Source: a virus (Duplodnaviria; Heunggongvirae; Uroviricota; Caudoviricetes). Taken from it: a stretch of DNA of 4,152 bases. The stretch lies in IMG/VR virus record IMGVR_UViG_2877953467_000005; one strand, 5' to 3'. Of this stretch, positions 1 to 4,152 are shown piece after piece (position 1 is the stretch's first letter; the number at the start of each line of letters is the position of its first letter). The notes under the pieces are model-generated. The model was given only the letters and a program-made list of their open reading frames with translations. It searched no databases and was not told the DNA's origin. The position numbers and the translations under genes were made by a program.

Positions 1-981
1 TTATAACGTCACTCCGCCTTTTAGTGGATTCAGAGCGACGGCATTTTGCAGATAGTCAGGCGCAAGGTGCGCATAGGCCATCGTCTGCTGAATGCTCGCA
101 TGTCCCAGAATCTGTTGCAGTGCGATTATATTGCCCCCATTCATCATGAAATGGCTTGCGAATGTATGCCGCAGGATGTGGGTTGCCTGATTGGGTGGTA
201 TATCAGGTTTCACTCTGCGTAAAATCCCGCAAAATTTCTCATAATCAACTTTGAATAATTTGGCGCTGGCCTCCTCTTTAACTTTTTTCTCCAGTTCCTC
301 AGAAATCGGCACGGTTCGCTTTTTACCGTTTTTGGTTTTCAGGAAGGTAACCCTGCAATTTGTAATCTGTGCTGGTTTTAGCGTGGCAACTTCCGTCCAT
401 CTTCCTCCGGTGCTCAGACATAAAAGCGCGACAAGTAAGTCATCACCAGCCAAAACATTTAACAGTTTTTCGATTTCTGCTTTTTCCAGGAACGTCATTT
501 CAGGGTTGGCCTCCGCCAGTGGCGGCAGTCCGTGAATTGGGTGTTGCCCGGAAAATTCATCCAATTGAATTAATTTTGTGAACATGCCGGATAATCGGTA
601 CATGTCACGGTTTATCGTTGCGGCACTGATACCATCACGTAGTCGCATGGAACGATAATCCATCAAAGCCCTTTTGCTCATCCTGCTCACTGGTATATCA
701 CCTATGCCGCTGATGGTTTTGAGTAGATGATTAAACTCTTTTGTTCCATGCTCGTGGTTTTGCCCGTGATATTTCCACCAGATGTCCAGCAACTCACTCA
801 AAGTCCGGCGGTCTGCTCGCTGGCCTCCCCATTCTTTCTGACTGGCATTGGCGATTGTGTATCGCTCAAATGCTAGTGCTTCAGCTTTTCTTTCGAATTT
901 CCTGCGGATGCGTTTTCCGTCGCGACCGCGAGGTCTAATGTCCACTTCATAGCGACCATCATCGAGCTTCTTAATTGCCAT
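1..981 (-). CDS. int: Phage tyrosine integrase (P2 Int-like), site-specific recombinase
   Basis: Minus-strand ORF 1..1011 (336 aa); stop codon is revcomp of 1..3. The internal Met at 979..981 begins MAIKKLDDGRYEVDIRP, which I recall as the P2 Int N-terminus, and is preceded by GGAGGG (revcomp of 989..994) with a 7-nt spacer, so 981 is the likelier start than 1011. C-terminal tyrosine-recombinase motifs are visible: HILRHTFASH and LGHASIQQTMAYAHL (catalytic Tyr). Confidence 0.92.
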   Translation of the reverse strand: MAIKKLDDGRYEVDIRPRGRDGKRIRRKFERKAEALAFERYTIANASQKEWGGQRADRRTLSELLDIWWKYHGQNHEHGTKEFNHLLKTISGIGDIPVSRMSKRALMDYRSMRLRDGISAATINRDMYRLSGMFTKLIQLDEFSGQHPIHGLPPLAEANPEMTFLEKAEIEKLLNVLAGDDLLVALLCLSTGGRWTEVATLKPAQITNCRVTFLKTKNGKKRTVPISEELEKKVKEEASAKLFKVDYEKFCGILRRVKPDIPPNQATHILRHTFASHFMMNGGNIIALQQILGHASIQQTMAYAHLAPDYLQNAVALNPLKGGVTL

Positions 982-1050
982 AAGAAAGCCCTCCGGCGCT
1001 GTATTCACCATCTTGGTAGCAAATGGTGAAAATGTAATCTTTATATAGAG

Positions 1051-1344
1051 TTAGCCAATCCTTTTCGCGGAGTGGTTGGACTCTGTTGACTCTGGCCCAA
1101 TGTGCGCGAGAGCCGGTGCGATTTGTCCTGCGTCCGGCGCGGTTTTATCTGTCATAAGCCATAGAGCATATTTTTGGAATGTGGGATGCATAGTGATTTT
1201 TAGCAAAGCTGTGCCACCGGGTTCAAAGTTTCCTCCTTCATATTTTTTAAGTGTGCTTAGCGGTAACTCTATGATTTCACAGAATTTTGATTGGCTTAGC
1301 CCTTCAGCCTCACGCAAGGCCTTAATCTTTTCGCTTAATTTCAT
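1051..1344 (-). CDS. C: Immunity repressor, P2 C-family, HTH DNA-binding protein
   Basis: 97-aa minus-strand ORF divergent from cox. An HTH-like segment (LSQSKFCEIIELPLSTLKKYE) and the C-terminal stretch FQKYALWLMT...APDAGQIAPALAH resemble P2 repressor C as I recall it. Size (~99 aa) and position between int and cox match P2 organisation. No strong SD upstream of the start. Confidence 0.85.
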   Translation of the reverse strand: MKLSEKIKALREAEGLSQSKFCEIIELPLSTLKKYEGGNFEPGGTALLKITMHPTFQKYALWLMTDKTAPDAGQIAPALAHIGPESTESNHSAKRIG

Positions 1345-1403
1345 TTGACATGGTGCCTATATAGGGACTAAATCCCCTCAAAACTGGAACCTATATAGGT
1401 TCC
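1345..1403. promoter_or_regulatory. Early promoter/operator switch region: consensus -35 TTGACA (1345..1350, + strand) plus two copies of palindromic CCTATATAGG (1356..1365 and 1390..1399)
   Basis: TTGACA lies immediately next to the C start codon and is oriented toward cox. A weak -10 candidate CTAAAT/TAAATC sits at about 1368..1374 (17-18 nt spacer). The 10-bp self-complementary core CCTATATAGG occurs twice, 34 bp centre to centre; the second copy is inside a perfect 18-bp palindrome GGAACCTATATAGGTTCC (1386..1403). Placement across the -35/-10 and just downstream matches the operator layout known for P2 Pe. Exact promoter elements are inferred. Confidence 0.55.
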
Positions 1404-1465
1404 ATTGATTTGAGAATAAACCAGCATCTAAACGGTTTTGAGTGGTTTAGAAAGGGCTGGATCCT

Positions 1466-1753
1466 ATGAGGGTACCATATATGGACGCTGAAAATTATGT
1501 GATTCAGTATCCGCTTGATGCGGTTCATGTGGATAAATTTGCTGATTTATTAGGGAAGCCAAAGACAGCCGTCAGTGAAATGGTGAAGGCAAATAAATTA
1601 CCAATTATTGAATTGCGTGATCCTTGCAAACCGAAGGCTCGTGCCGGTGAAAAATGGGTTTTCATTCCTGAGTTTAATCGCGCTGTACGTGAGGCGTTTT
1701 ATAACCGACCGGTTGAACAGCGTGATGCATGGCTTTTGTGGATGGGGTTGTGA
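1466..1753 (+). CDS. cox: Cox-like excisionase / early-operon regulator
   Basis: 95-aa ORF. The C-terminal half (AGEKWVFIPEFN...FYNRPVEQRDAWLLWMGL) resembles P2 Cox as recalled (AGEYWVYLPAWN...RPKEIRDGWLMWLGL). First gene rightward of the switch region. Alternative start at 1481 (MDAENYV) has a GAGGG SD at 1469..1473; the 1466 start has AAGGG at 1452..1456. Confidence 0.8.
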   Translation: MRVPYMDAENYVIQYPLDAVHVDKFADLLGKPKTAVSEMVKANKLPIIELRDPCKPKARAGEKWVFIPEFNRAVREAFYNRPVEQRDAWLLWMGL

Positions 1754-1755
1754 TT

Positions 1756-1926
1756 ATGAATGAGCCGCGTTGTATTGCTCAGTTATTGCGTAACGAAAGC
1801 CCCAGGGCGATTGACTTCACCATCACCCACGGTAAGGGGCGTAAGGGAATCATTATCCGCACCAAAAAACAGAGTCCGTTAAAAAAGGCTCTGACCTTTC
1901 TGAAAAGCCGGAGGGTATGGAAATGA
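1756..1926 (+). CDS. Small basic hypothetical protein (position of P2 orf78)
   Basis: ORF track gives 1729..1926. The ATG at 1756 lies 2 nt after the cox stop (TGA 1751..1753), and its own stop (TGA 1924..1926) overlaps the B start in an ATGA arrangement, consistent with translational coupling. The protein is K/R-rich (GKGRKGIIIRTKKQSPLKKALTFLKSRR). No family recognised. Confidence 0.5.
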   Translation: MNEPRCIAQLLRNESPRAIDFTITHGKGRKGIIIRTKKQSPLKKALTFLKSRRVWK

Positions 1927-2423
1927 CAGTGATGACGCTCAATCTCGTTGAAAAACAGCCAGCAGCTATGCGCCGGATAATTGGCAAGCATCTTGCCGTC
2001 CCTCGCTGGCAGGATACATGTGATTATTATAATCAGATGATGGAGCGCGAACGGCTAACGGTTTGCTTTCATGCACAGTTAAAACAGCGTCACGCAACGA
2101 TGCGTTTTGAAGAAATGAACGACGTCGAACGTGAACGACTGGTTTGTGCAATTGATGAATTGCGTGGCGCATTCTCAAAACGCCGTCAGGTCGGCGCAAG
2201 TGAGTATGCATATATTAGTTTTTTAACAGTCAGTCAGCGTCGTACTTTATTTATGCATGCGGGATTGACAGAAAAAGAATTCAATCAGCCGTACTGGCGA
2301 ATTAATGAAGAATCATGTTACTGGCGTGATGCTTTATTCCGTGCATTACGTGAATTATTCAGTCTGTTTGAGTATGCACCGACAATTCTGACGTCGGTAA
2401 AACCAGAGCAATATCTGCATTAA
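1923..2423 (+). CDS. B: Replication protein B (P2 gpB-like, helicase-loader-type)
   Basis: ORF 1917..2423. The start at 1923 (MTVMTLNLVEKQ...) has GGAGGG at 1910..1915 with a 7-nt spacer and gives 166 aa, the size I recall for P2 B. The sequence closely resembles P2 B from memory. Stop TAA at 2421..2423. Confidence 0.85.
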   Translation: MTVMTLNLVEKQPAAMRRIIGKHLAVPRWQDTCDYYNQMMERERLTVCFHAQLKQRHATMRFEEMNDVERERLVCAIDELRGAFSKRRQVGASEYAYISFLTVSQRRTLFMHAGLTEKEFNQPYWRINEESCYWRDALFRALRELFSLFEYAPTILTSVKPEQYLH

Positions 2424-2486
2424 ATAATTAACCAGAGTTTTTAACGCACTTAATCGTGCGGGGCTTCTTTTTGCCTGGAGAAAGTC

Positions 2487-2711
2487 ATGCATACAGTTTC
2501 TGAAAATCAGTGCGGTAAATACGCATTACTGCTGCAACAGGCCAGAACCGAAGCACAGGCCGACGCTGCGACGCGCTTTTCTTCTCATCTTGACGCCATG
2601 ATTCGCCACATCACAAAGGCGGAGTTATCCCGCGTGGAGATAGTTGAGCTGCTCAGTCAGGAGTCGGAAAAATTTCACAATATCGGATTGTCTCGCGGGG
2701 AGGTGCTTTGA
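2487..2711 (+). CDS. Hypothetical early protein (P2 orf80-like)
   Basis: 74-aa ORF with GGAG SD at 2477..2480 and a 6-nt spacer. Its stop TGA (2709..2711) overlaps the next ATG (TGATG). Position and size match P2 orf80. Confidence 0.7.
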
Positions 2712-3013
2712 TGTCCTGTTCTCGTTCGGTTGTATTACTGAATAACGCCTTAAAAATCGCCGTTATGAAAAATGGTGATTTGTCTCTTATTCAACTTGGT
2801 ATTGATAAAGAGAAGCGCGAAATAACTGAATCTGTTATCGCGATTTATCAGAGTGAATTAAACCTCCTGTCTGATGTGGTCAATTTACTTGTTAAACGCG
2901 CTGTATTCCACAAGCAAATTTCCTCAGTGGATGAACTGACAAAATTAACGACAGAACTCGCCAGTTATTGCGCTGATGAATTTAAGAAGCTGAACGACAA
3001 AAGGAGCTGGTAA
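2711..3013 (+). CDS. Hypothetical early protein (P2 orf81-like)
   Basis: ORF track starts at TTG 2708; ATG 2711 is preferred because GGAGG at 2699..2703 gives a 7-nt spacer. 100 aa. Stop TAA (3011..3013) overlaps the next ATG (TAATG). Confidence 0.7.
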   Translation: MSCSRSVVLLNNALKIAVMKNGDLSLIQLGIDKEKREITESVIAIYQSELNLLSDVVNLLVKRAVFHKQISSVDELTKLTTELASYCADEFKKLNDKRSW

Positions 3014-3237
3014 TGCCGGACAACGTGGATTTTATTCAGGAACAACAGGCTGAATTACTGGAGCGCCAGATTAACGCGGCAAGGGTAAAACATTGCGGTG
3101 TTTCTGCGCTGGTTTGCGAAGAGTGTGACGCGCCAATACCTGCTGCCCGTCGTGCGGCTTATCCGTCAGCCACGCGTTGTGTTTCCTGTCAGTCAGTCTT
3201 TGAAGCAAAAAACAAACATTACCGGAGAACGGCATGA
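3013..3237 (+). CDS. TraR/DksA-family C4 zinc-finger protein (P2 orf82-like)
   Basis: 74 aa with AAGGAG SD at 3001..3006. Contains CEEC-x17-CVSC, the CxxC-x17-CxxC signature of the TraR/DksA zinc finger. Stop TGA overlaps the next ATG (ATGA at 3234..3237). Confidence 0.8.
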   Translation: MPDNVDFIQEQQAELLERQINAARVKHCGVSALVCEECDAPIPAARRAAYPSATRCVSCQSVFEAKNKHYRRTA

Positions 3238-3361
3238 GTATTCGTATTGAAATTGGCGAACGTTATGTCGTTACCAGTGACAGCTTTCAGTTTATTCTCC
3301 ACGAGAAAAAGAGAGCGGAAAGCGGTAAAAACGCCGGTCAGGAATGGCTGGCGGTGGTTGG
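3234..3361 (+). CDS. Hypothetical early protein (P2 orf83-like), 3' end lost in assembly gap
   Basis: ATG 3234 with GGAG at 3223..3226. The N-terminal 42 aa (MSIRIEIGERYVVTSDSFQFILHEKKRAESGKNAGQEWLAVV) run straight into the N run. The ORF-track continuation to 3530 reads through the gap in an arbitrary frame and is not trusted. Confidence 0.6.
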
Positions 3362-3372
3362 NNNNNNNNNNN
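3362..3372. other. Run of 11 N: assembly or scaffold gap of unknown true length
   Basis: Literal n characters in the sequence. GC content and gene content differ on either side. Confidence 0.95.
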
Positions 3373-3510
3373 AACTTTTTGGGGTCAGTACATCGAGGGG
3401 CTTTCTGTTTTGGGGAATATTCTTCATTAAAAGTAGTGGATCACGTTTAATAAACTATGTTTATCATATACTTAAAAGTCAATCTTTAAAGTTGGACAGG
3501 TTGGTGGAAA

Positions 3511-4152
3511 ATGGAAAAAGTTATAATTGAGCTTGATAATCGTTGGGAGTTAGCTGATTTCGCGGTCTTAACGAAAGAGTATTTGCAGCTATATGGTTTT
3601 TTTTATGGCCTAAAAGGAGGATCAAGAGGATATTCAACAATGCCTTGGGAGGGTGGGCACAGTGTGGTGAACTTTTTTAGAGGGGCTTACAGTGCGACTC
3701 CACCAGATTTACGTCCTGTAGTGAAAAAAATTCAGTATGCCTCTCCTGGCTTTATTGAATTGTCTGCTCTTATTGATATCTCTTGGCAGATTGCTGAGTT
3801 AGTTACTGCTGTTGGTGGAAGTATTCTGGCTGCCAACAAAGTTTACGATCAGGTGATGCGTACATATCGACAAAGAGAATGGGCAAAGTTGAAATCAGAG
3901 AAGCTGCGTATACAGAATCAAATTAAAGAGATTGAACTTGTTTCTGACGCAGTTAAATCACTTGAATCTGTGATGGCACTTAGTGAAGAACAACGTAAAA
4001 ACTTGGTTCAACTATCGGGGGCAGATGAACTGGTTCAGTTAAAGATACTTTTGGCTGTTTACCGACGGTTATCTCCTCTTGTTGAGTTGCAAAACAGCGG
4101 GAAAGCTAATTTTTCTGCTGGGAAAAATAAAAATTTAAAAGCGTCCGATTAA
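3511..4152 (+). CDS. Hypothetical protein, 213 aa, no recognisable family; candidate accessory or cargo gene (possible superinfection-exclusion or anti-phage function)
   Basis: Complete ORF from ATG 3511 to TAA 4150..4152, coherent over 213 codons. The region is AT-rich (about 37% GC in two 60-nt samples versus about 52% in B). Weak SD GGTGG at 3503..3507. Predicted N-terminal globular part, a central amphipathic hydrophobic stretch (FIELSALIDISWQIAELVTAVGGSILAA) and a K/E-rich C-terminal region that looks helical or coiled-coil. No Walker A, nuclease or other catalytic motif recognised. Confidence 0.6.
   Translation: MEKVIIELDNRWELADFAVLTKEYLQLYGFFYGLKGGSRGYSTMPWEGGHSVVNFFRGAYSATPPDLRPVVKKIQYASPGFIELSALIDISWQIAELVTAVGGSILAANKVYDQVMRTYRQREWAKLKSEKLRIQNQIKEIELVSDAVKSLESVMALSEEQRKNLVQLSGADELVQLKILLAVYRRLSPLVELQNSGKANFSAGKNKNLKASD

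Follow-up and report, generated by a model that had tools for sequence, protein, structure and literature searches.

A short, antitoxin-less homologue of the PD-T4-10B toxin carried as single-gene cargo between ogr and the attachment site of a P2-like Escherichia coli prophage

PD-T4-10 was obtained by functional selection in Escherichia coli ECOR65 and consists of two overlapping open reading frames (ORFs), of which B is toxic and is neutralised by A; A could not be deleted, deletion of B abolishes T4 resistance, and the system protects E. coli from T-even phages with an abortive-infection phenotype (Vassallo et al. 2022, PMC9519451). DUF6575 is the sole domain noted for it, and 7 of the 21 systems reported in that study are located in P2-like prophages (PMC9519451), while a later preprint counts PD-T4-10 among the P2-like hotspot defence systems. 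No mechanistic literature on PD-T4-10 or DUF6575 was found beyond Vassallo et al. Defence hotspots of P2 and P4 were described by Rousset et al. 2022 (PMC9122126), and those listed for P2 comprise gpA-gpQ, the tail genes (Z/fun), int-att and int-primase (PMC13586616, PMC9519451). Here, we analysed a stretch of 4,152 nucleotides from a Caudoviricetes record (IMG/VR IMGVR_UViG_2877953467_000005; hereafter the window) with a focus on the gene at its right end, ORF213:

3511..4152, plus strand: ORF213 (WP_000416606.1, annotated 'hypothetical protein'), a short-form homologue of the PD-T4-10B C-terminal core.

On balance, we favour the reading that ORF213 is homologous to the PD-T4-10B effector but streamlined and free of an antitoxin, that it forms a one-gene moron between ogr and attP, and that it probably gives the lysogen protection by abortive infection or exclusion. 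An earlier sequence-only reading of the window had called the ORF unassignable, a description that no longer applies, as three PD-T4-10_B models (the PADLOC models for the system are PDLC04023-04026) matched it in a PADLOC scan with E-values of 1.3e-34, 7e-23, and 3e-19. The best match, PDLC04024, aligned amino acids (aa) 3-201 of ORF213 with model positions 139-346 of 353, and BLASTP against residues 138-345 of the long-form homologue P0268 gave 29% identity (E 8e-23). Pfam, NCBIfam, and PHROGs scans returned nothing significant and PADLOC reported PD-T4-10_B only. Homology to P2 A, tin, old, or fun is therefore absent, and the earlier reading had likewise seen no match to A, tin, or old. Like PD-T4-10, the whole of ORF213 is homologous to the ~200-aa C-terminal core of B, with common motifs and a common predicted order of structural elements; unlike PD-T4-10, it comes without an A gene and without a DUF6575 domain, its central helix is hydrophobic instead of charged, it occupies the ogr-att interval and not gpA-gpQ or Z/fun, and its function is predicted. 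To judge from these comparisons, it misses two of three testable PD-T4-10 features, namely partner A and DUF6575. As the family is already linked to defence, ORF213 would thus be a streamlined variant and not a new kind of system; of the original proposal of an undescribed anti-phage or exclusion gene, the anti-phage part is sustained by the PD-T4-10B homology, and the word undescribed has to be given up.

The gene call itself was confirmed. ORF213 encodes 213 aa, starts with ATG behind a Shine-Dalgarno sequence (GGTGGA, 3503-3508, 3-8 nt upstream), has an in-frame stop 7 codons upstream, is conserved, and is the sole sizeable ORF 3' of the run of N that divides the window, as the first reading had it (3511-4152, plus strand). 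The DUF6575 N-domain (~130 aa) is absent from it, with no Pfam match and the same in-frame stop upstream. Its 118 close homologues are nearly all 209-235 aa long, and the possibility that ORF213 is a 5'-truncated long-form B was rejected on account of these lengths and of the in-frame stops just upstream. The family alignment (A1) has 12 invariant residues and conserved lengths, and an exhaustive profile search with it retrieved 796 cluster representatives, including 197 with E ≤ 1e-30. As the synonymous sites have reached saturation, the proportions of non-synonymous (pN) and synonymous (pS) differences are given in place of dN/dS: the comparison with the Kosakonia orthologue (77% identical) gave pN 0.12 and pS 0.76 (saturated; pN/pS ~0.16), and other orthologue pairs gave pN 0.24-0.26 and pS 0.78-0.88. 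Since pN is low while pS is saturated, ORF213 is under purifying selection.

The protein was modelled with AlphaFold2 (AF2), and the following parts were distinguished:

3511..3768, plus strand: aa 1-86, small alpha/beta sub-domain (AF2 model, alignment A1).
3769..3831, plus strand: aa 87-107, central helix (LIDISWQIAELVTAVGGSILA); short forms have it hydrophobic, canonical long forms charged.
3823..4095, plus strand: aa 105-195, a 50-residue helix (105-154) and helices 159-169 and 173-195 (AF2, alignment A1).

The first part is predicted to consist of a strand (2-8), two helices (14-36, 49-61) and two strands (70-75, 80-86), and bears the invariant motifs PW-GG-S-VNFF (aa 45-56) and IQYASPGFIEL (aa 74-84), while the two C-terminal helices bear the invariant K178 and R185 (LK-ILL--YRR motif). 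The mean predicted local distance difference test score (pLDDT) was 85.9 for ORF213 and 84.3 for P0268 (predicted template modelling score 0.83), and both models have the same core order: strand-helix-helix-strand-strand-helix-long helix-helix-helix. The P0268 model contains an additional beta-rich domain (aa 1-125). The rough architecture proposed at first, a globular N-terminus followed by an amphipathic segment and a coiled-coil C-terminus, survives in the AF2 model as an alpha/beta N-terminal part, an amphipathic-to-hydrophobic helix and long C-terminal helices. Neither a sequence-profile search of the PDB nor a Foldseek search of the ORF213 model against PDB and BFVD gave anything below E 0.2.

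Two architectures were found among the profile matches: short forms of ~205-250 aa, which are the domain alone, and long forms of ~320-400 aa, which have a 125-165-aa N-terminal extension and match the PADLOC B models end to end. Pfam placed DUF6575 at the N-terminus above the cut-off in 6 of 10 long forms scanned and below it in two more. Short forms make up at least ~100 of the 150 best cluster representatives and are distributed over many Proteobacteria and beyond. The central helix differs between the two, with a mean Kyte-Doolittle (KD) hydropathy of 1.33 in 211 short forms vs. 0.04 in 45 long forms, and 2.2 vs. 4.7 charged residues; short-form helices such as LLLVAGTVAGIVAAVCAAI reach KD 2.6. 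That of ORF213 (1.37 over 21 residues; one Asp, one Glu) lies at the low end of the short forms, and a transmembrane helix is not predicted for ORF213 itself. The helix is the most concrete lead for a mechanistic difference of the short forms; it may form the core of the fold, mediate oligomer contacts or act as a latent membrane-insertion element. In one of the long forms, P0231 (401 aa), the core domain stands behind a TRADD-like N domain (24.1 bits, cut-off 23.7) without DUF6575, and an EAD1 match was sub-threshold; this fusion hints that the core could serve as an effector in STAND/NTPase-type conflict systems. In the bacterial conflict systems that couple effectors to EAD/TRADD-N adaptors (PF20694, PF19955), the position taken by the P0231 core is the usual one of the toxic effector, which is a single weak observation; unlike such coupled effectors, ORF213 has no adaptor domain.

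The second missing feature is the antitoxin gene. In every long-form locus examined, an ORF of 114-148 aa lies directly upstream of B and either reaches or overlaps its start; three of these upstream ORFs match PADLOC PD-T4-10_A (E 1e-18 to 3e-20), and seven diverged ones, as an aligned set, were tied to canonical A by hhalign (96.4% probability, E 1e-9). A hidden Markov model (HMM) of the A family, built from 10 sequences and run with all filters off against the 9413 open frames of 93 loci, recovered 12 of 12 long-form loci (11 distinct, as L014 = L015), including L086, which was outside the model. With the same model (E < 0.3), no A-family frame was found in ~55 short-form loci with ± 4 kb of flank, nor anywhere in the 43-kb E. 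coli prophage locus. The PADLOC PD-T4-10_A model misses the upstream genes of six loci (L066, L075, L076, L090, L092, L088; E ≤ 0.01), and that of L073 scores 0.003; many canonical two-gene PD-T4-10 systems are probably missed by present annotation.

The short-form loci have no common neighbour gene. They lie behind ogr in E. coli, Kosakonia, and Salmonella, beside a degraded ogr remnant in Enterobacter, and at prophage ends in Siccibacter and Pectobacterium. In Pseudomonas sp. GM80 (locus L005, 6001-7668), a 210-aa short form is separated by 28 nt from a downstream gene for a 335-aa DUF4917 protein, a match to PADLOC candidate PDC-S21 (324 bits), and the pair is situated inside a prophage beside an S24-peptidase repressor; it could be a small defence cluster. 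In Vibrio (locus L008), a 136-nt repeat occurs 11 times in 9.6 kb, and a 209-aa homologue (47% identical) stands as the only gene between two of its copies, an arrangement that looks like a single-gene integron-type cassette. As no A-family frame and no common neighbour accompany the short forms, these behave as self-contained one-gene units, and comparative genomics favours the option that ORF213 would act alone. The alternative first considered, a partner lost in the gap, is contradicted by complete genomes, in which the order is ogr, 140 bp, ORF213, attR, and fieF, and by the lack of a PD-T4-10A-like frame in the 43-kb locus.

ORF213 is horizontally acquired accessory cargo of a P2-like prophage at a variable position, as had been proposed, and this was established by comparing filled and empty alleles of the insert:

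3405..4152 and 12 nt beyond the window, plus strand: cargo insert ('moron') of 760 bp, ending just 5' of the integrase arm-type repeats GATGTGGACGCTATGTGGACA.
3412..3510, plus strand: AT-rich upstream region of ORF213 (33% GC), with the Shine-Dalgarno sequence GGTGGA at 3503-3508.
4140..4152, unstranded: left arm and loop of an 8-bp hairpin (AGCGTCCG-ATTAAA-CGGACGCT) across the stop codon, computed on the filled allele L018.

When the ogr-fieF interval of the filled allele L018 was compared by blastn with that of the empty allele L025, homology ended at 3404 and restarted at the equivalent of 4165, so that the two alleles at one att site differ by a clean 760-bp indel (~3405-4164 in window coordinates), bordered directly 3' of the ogr terminator stem and directly 5' of the arm repeats. 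No direct or inverted repeats were found around the insert, nor any mobile-element signature; it holds no second ORF and does not qualify as a type II toxin-antitoxin gene pair. E. coli APEC 102026 has a related prophage at the same cpxP|fieF site with 237 bp from ogr to fieF and without ORF213, and mapping of the locus across related P2-like prophages showed the position to be variable, with the post-ogr slot empty in 5 of 6 prophages sampled across the D-ogr matches. Among 5426 complete E. coli genomes, 160 carry ORF213, and P2-type D-ogr is found in 2073 (2327 places). The lineages with ORF213 presumably include clinically important E. coli, judging by strain names. Nearly all of the 160 copies are unbroken, and a single broken allele was seen: in strain MLI104K2 (L020, NZ_CP116925.1, 3598-4240) the orthologue is spread over three reading frames (annotation: hypothetical protein of 126 aa), a decaying copy beside which gene D is also frameshifted.

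The boundaries of the prophage were placed in E. coli strain AR435 (L002, NZ_CP029115.1), where attL (~1890-1932) and attR (~40124-40170) bracket the gene, ORF213 ending at 40040, 84 bp before attR, and where both att cores are the duplicated cpxP terminator, CACCATCCCTGTCTTCCCCCACATG(A/C)TGTGGGGGTTTTTTTT. Two integrase arm-type repeats (TGTGGAC) lie directly 3' of the stop codon. Given these repeats and the bracketing att sites, ORF213 is inside the prophage and would leave with the phage on excision. The attachment-site core being the intrinsic terminator of cpxP and duplicated on integration, cpxP and the right end of the prophage both keep one; the att-core terminator stands ~100 bp downstream of ORF213. 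The right arm of the stop-codon hairpin falls just past the window end; on the minus strand a T-run comes after the hairpin, which makes it a terminator-like site.

The same post-ogr slot holds the gene in Kosakonia arachidis and Salmonella enterica. The S. enterica SR33 record (L094, NZ_CP092913.1, 'plasmid unnamed1') has the appearance of a mislabelled chromosomal fragment, 80 kb long and linear: it includes ogr, ORF213 (protein 100% identical), fieF, pfkA and a gene for a sulfate-binding protein, and it shows the same prophage with its cargo in Salmonella. The upstream region accompanies ORF213 in all 160 E. coli genomes and also occurs 3' of ogr in Salmonella phage STYP1 (L017, KX833211.1), the final 117 nt of which (28830-28946) are 97.5% identical to it; the deposited 'complete genome' of STYP1 ends one base short of where ORF213 would begin, and the record probably leaves the gene out. 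A tblastn search of ORF213 against 50,697 phage records gave no match. No Ogr-type late-promoter dyad (TGT-N12-ACA) was found upstream of ORF213, and an Rfam scan of the window found no RNA family.

The guanine-plus-cytosine (GC) content falls from 45.6% (1-3361) to 38.9% (3373-4152); the drop reported earlier is therefore real, with these figures in place of ~50% and ~37%. It is modest, as all 779-nt windows of the left block range from 41.8 to 48.5%. ORF213 itself has 39.9% GC (31.8% at third codon positions), its upstream region 33.3%, and the whole insert 38.5%, lower than any 779-nt backbone window. A 101-aa DUF5405 gene of the early operon (2708-3013) is as low as the cargo segment (38.2%) and, because this gene belongs to the backbone, low GC is by itself no cargo marker in this phage.

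Compared with the P2 genes tin, old, and Z/fun, ORF213 is likewise of low GC, variable between related phages, placed between conserved P2 modules and a probable anti-phage gene; unlike tin, old, and fun, it has no sequence similarity to those proteins. PD-T4-10 systems in P2-like hotspots and ORF213 have in common their carriage by P2-like prophages. The post-ogr position next to attP is outside the two classical P2 hotspots and outside those listed in PMC13586616. Streamlined versions of known defence systems occur in integron cassettes (bioRxiv 10.1101/2024.07.02.601686), and the Vibrio homologue resembles the cassettes of sedentary chromosomal integrons as the sole gene between array repeats; unlike these, ORF213 of E. 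coli is prophage cargo with no attC-like or other repeat around it. 'PD-T4' is absent from the text of that preprint, and no tested cassette from the ORF213 family is known.

The remaining parts of the window are of interest for how it was assembled:

1..3361, unstranded: left end of the P2-like prophage (context only, not physically next to ORF213).
1-1011, minus strand: int (left piece).
1051-1344, minus strand: C-type repressor gene (left piece).
1466-1753: cox (left piece), followed by genes of the early operon, the last of them an orf83-like DUF5405 gene cut off after its first part.
3362..3372, unstranded: run of 11 N, an assembly or scaffold gap in place of 15-34 kb of prophage.
3373..3392, plus strand: last 20 nt of IS150 with its right terminal inverted repeat (...GGGGTCAGTACA), not cargo.
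3393..3411, plus strand: TCG target duplication (3393-3395) and 3' half of the ogr intrinsic terminator (TCGAGGGGCTTTCTGTTTT).

Composed of two separate pieces, the window joins both ends of one P2-like (Peduovirus) prophage across the 11-N gap. Both pieces (1-3361 and 3373-4152) are 100% identical to complete E. coli chromosomes, the left one to NZ_CP029115.1 226549-229909, where the annotated genes are integrase, HTH protein, Cox, DUF2732, DUF5405, and TraR/DksA, with the replication endonuclease next. In complete genomes the pieces occupy opposite ends of one prophage, unchanged in order and orientation, and are separated by 15.3 kb in NZ_CP029973.1 and by ~34 kb in NZ_CP029115.1 and NZ_AP019189.1, and the gap hides replication, head, tail and lysis genes, D, ogr, and most of IS150. 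The supposed adjacency of the segment to the early operon is consequently an artefact of the gap.

In strain AR435, a single P2-like prophage lies between cpxP and fieF, with the order int, C-type repressor, cox, early genes, replication endonuclease A and helicase, followed by the Q-to-D head, lysis and tail genes, ogr, IS150, ORF213, and fieF. The helicase (826 aa, DEAD/DEAH type; L002 10653-13136, minus strand) occupies the classical gpA-gpQ hotspot and matches the PADLOC candidate PDC-S28 (1054 bits); with it and ORF213 in the same prophage, cargo is present in at least two slots. ISEc12 interrupts replication gene A (L002 5548-10413), and the tail-fibre region (28208-31150) contains ISEc22 and a recombinase gene; given three insertions (ISEc12, ISEc22, IS150), the prophage of the AR435 lineage is probably defective.

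Of the AT-rich segment 3373-4152 that had been regarded as cargo, the part from 3405 onwards is cargo, while 3373-3392 is the right end of IS150: the 1443-bp element of AR435 (annotated IS3-like IS150 transposase) has its end exactly at window position 3392, and the contig evidently broke inside this multicopy element. Both ends of IS150 are bordered by TCG (a 3-bp duplication), and the insertion point is the loop of the ogr terminator hairpin, whose stem measures 16 bp in the IS-free allele (-30.4 kcal/mol, z = -7.1). Of the 160 genomes with the segment, 73 contain the junction, and in these IS150 lies 118 bp upstream of ORF213; the IS-free alleles show the order given above. The loss of a partner to IS150 or in the gap was rejected, since this is a simple insertion with a 3-bp duplication and the IS-free spacing between ogr and ORF213 is 140 bp.

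For the function of ORF213, we propose that the lysogen would make the protein and that it would be harmless until an infecting phage activates it. Once activated, it would stop growth or kill the cell (abortive infection or exclusion), and this arrest or killing would protect the clonal hosts of the prophage. Control would be intrinsic: the fold or an oligomer might, for instance, keep the hydrophobic central helix sequestered, and triggering would release the helix or insert it into the membrane. We infer the defence function, the toxicity, the trigger and the mode of self-control; the anti-phage reading is supported by the homology to an experimentally validated defence toxin (PMC9519451) and by defence neighbourhoods, i.e., the Pseudomonas short form beside the PDC-S21 candidate and the TRADD-N fusion of P0231.

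Several points weigh against this proposal. The experimental support in the family is confined to two-gene PD-T4-10, and the defence role of the short form is predicted. The validated system has two genes and a longer B, and PADLOC or DefenseFinder would call no system here. A toxin without an antitoxin would require some other control. In addition, profile and Foldseek searches gave no fold or motif match pointing to a biochemical activity, no sigma-70 promoter with ≥ 9/12 consensus matches was found upstream of ORF213, and its best 19-residue window (1.35) is under the usual transmembrane threshold of 1.6. Finally, IS150 at 118 bp upstream in 73 of 160 genomes, together with the broken copy, indicates that ORF213 is dispensable.

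A related and possible, though distinctly less probable, view is that the short antitoxin-less proteins are a separate, widespread family of single-protein immunity, derived from or ancestral to PD-T4-10B, in which a buried hydrophobic helix would replace DUF6575 and the antitoxin and a phage cue would lead to membrane action or oligomerisation. If so, ORF213 would be an autonomous abortive-infection or exclusion protein of ~24 kDa with a fold unseen in solved structures, carried in the little-noticed ogr-attP slot.

It is unlikely that the short forms were repurposed as membrane-associated superinfection-exclusion or lysogenic-conversion proteins that block entry or an early step without killing. 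Such a role would agree with the systematic hydrophobicity of the central helix in short (mean KD 1.33, up to 2.6) but not long forms, 58 of 67 family members being above KD 1.6, and with a non-toxic protein that would need no antitoxin. The gene also adjoins att and int, and the att/int vicinity is a common place for exclusion genes. The helix of ORF213, however, reaches only 1.35 and contains Asp and Glu, AF2 folds the central segment as a 16-residue helix in a compact domain, no N-terminal hydrophobic signal-like segment is present (the most hydrophobic 19-residue stretch starts at aa 90), and the sole experimental data for the family indicate toxicity and abortive infection (PMC9519451).

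Equally doubtful is the idea of a functionless or decaying orphan, a toxin domain left over from PD-T4-10 after loss of the N-domain and antitoxin and hitch-hiking in the prophage. The absence of A and DUF6575 and of a recognised promoter would fit it, as would the 73 genomes with IS150 adjoining the gene and the one frameshifted allele. Against it, short forms constitute a large and old family that has kept its length and its invariant motifs, there is little non-synonymous divergence in the face of saturated synonymous sites, the gene reappears as a unit of its own in unrelated prophages as well as in a cassette array, and nearly all of the 160 genomes have an intact coding sequence, with one broken allele seen.

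We give very little credence to a counter-defence decoy, in which a mimic of the PD-T4-10B core would titrate a partner or trigger so that the P2-like phage could infect hosts with PD-T4-10-type systems: the gene is phage-encoded and lacks the parts of B that accompany the antitoxin, but short forms also exist outside phages, e.g., in chromosomal cassette arrays, all invariant core residues common with the long forms are retained, and no sign of early expression during infection was seen. An assembly artefact, with the right segment coming from an unrelated contig, might be suspected from the 11-N gap and the start of the right piece within multicopy IS150, but is refuted as to origin and practically negligible, because both pieces belong to one att-bounded prophage with the same order and orientation in all complete genomes inspected, the segment being its right end.

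Returning to ORF213 as a streamlined PD-T4-10B homologue that would protect its lysogen, the practical impact is modest, as the family is already tied to defence; to specialists familiar with the defence cargo of P2-like phages, the finding is no surprise. If the short form protects alone, a two-gene toxin-antitoxin defence would be reducible to one protein of ~210 aa, which raises the question of how a toxin is silenced without its antitoxin. As nothing in the searched PDB and BFVD libraries matches its fold, a structure would be informative. If true, the reading would also add ogr-attP as an overlooked cargo slot to the P2 defence hotspots, and would draw attention to the 'incomplete system' matches dropped by PADLOC or DefenseFinder for want of a partner gene. 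As a candidate for defence by a single minimal protein, ORF213 is worth pursuing and easy to test.

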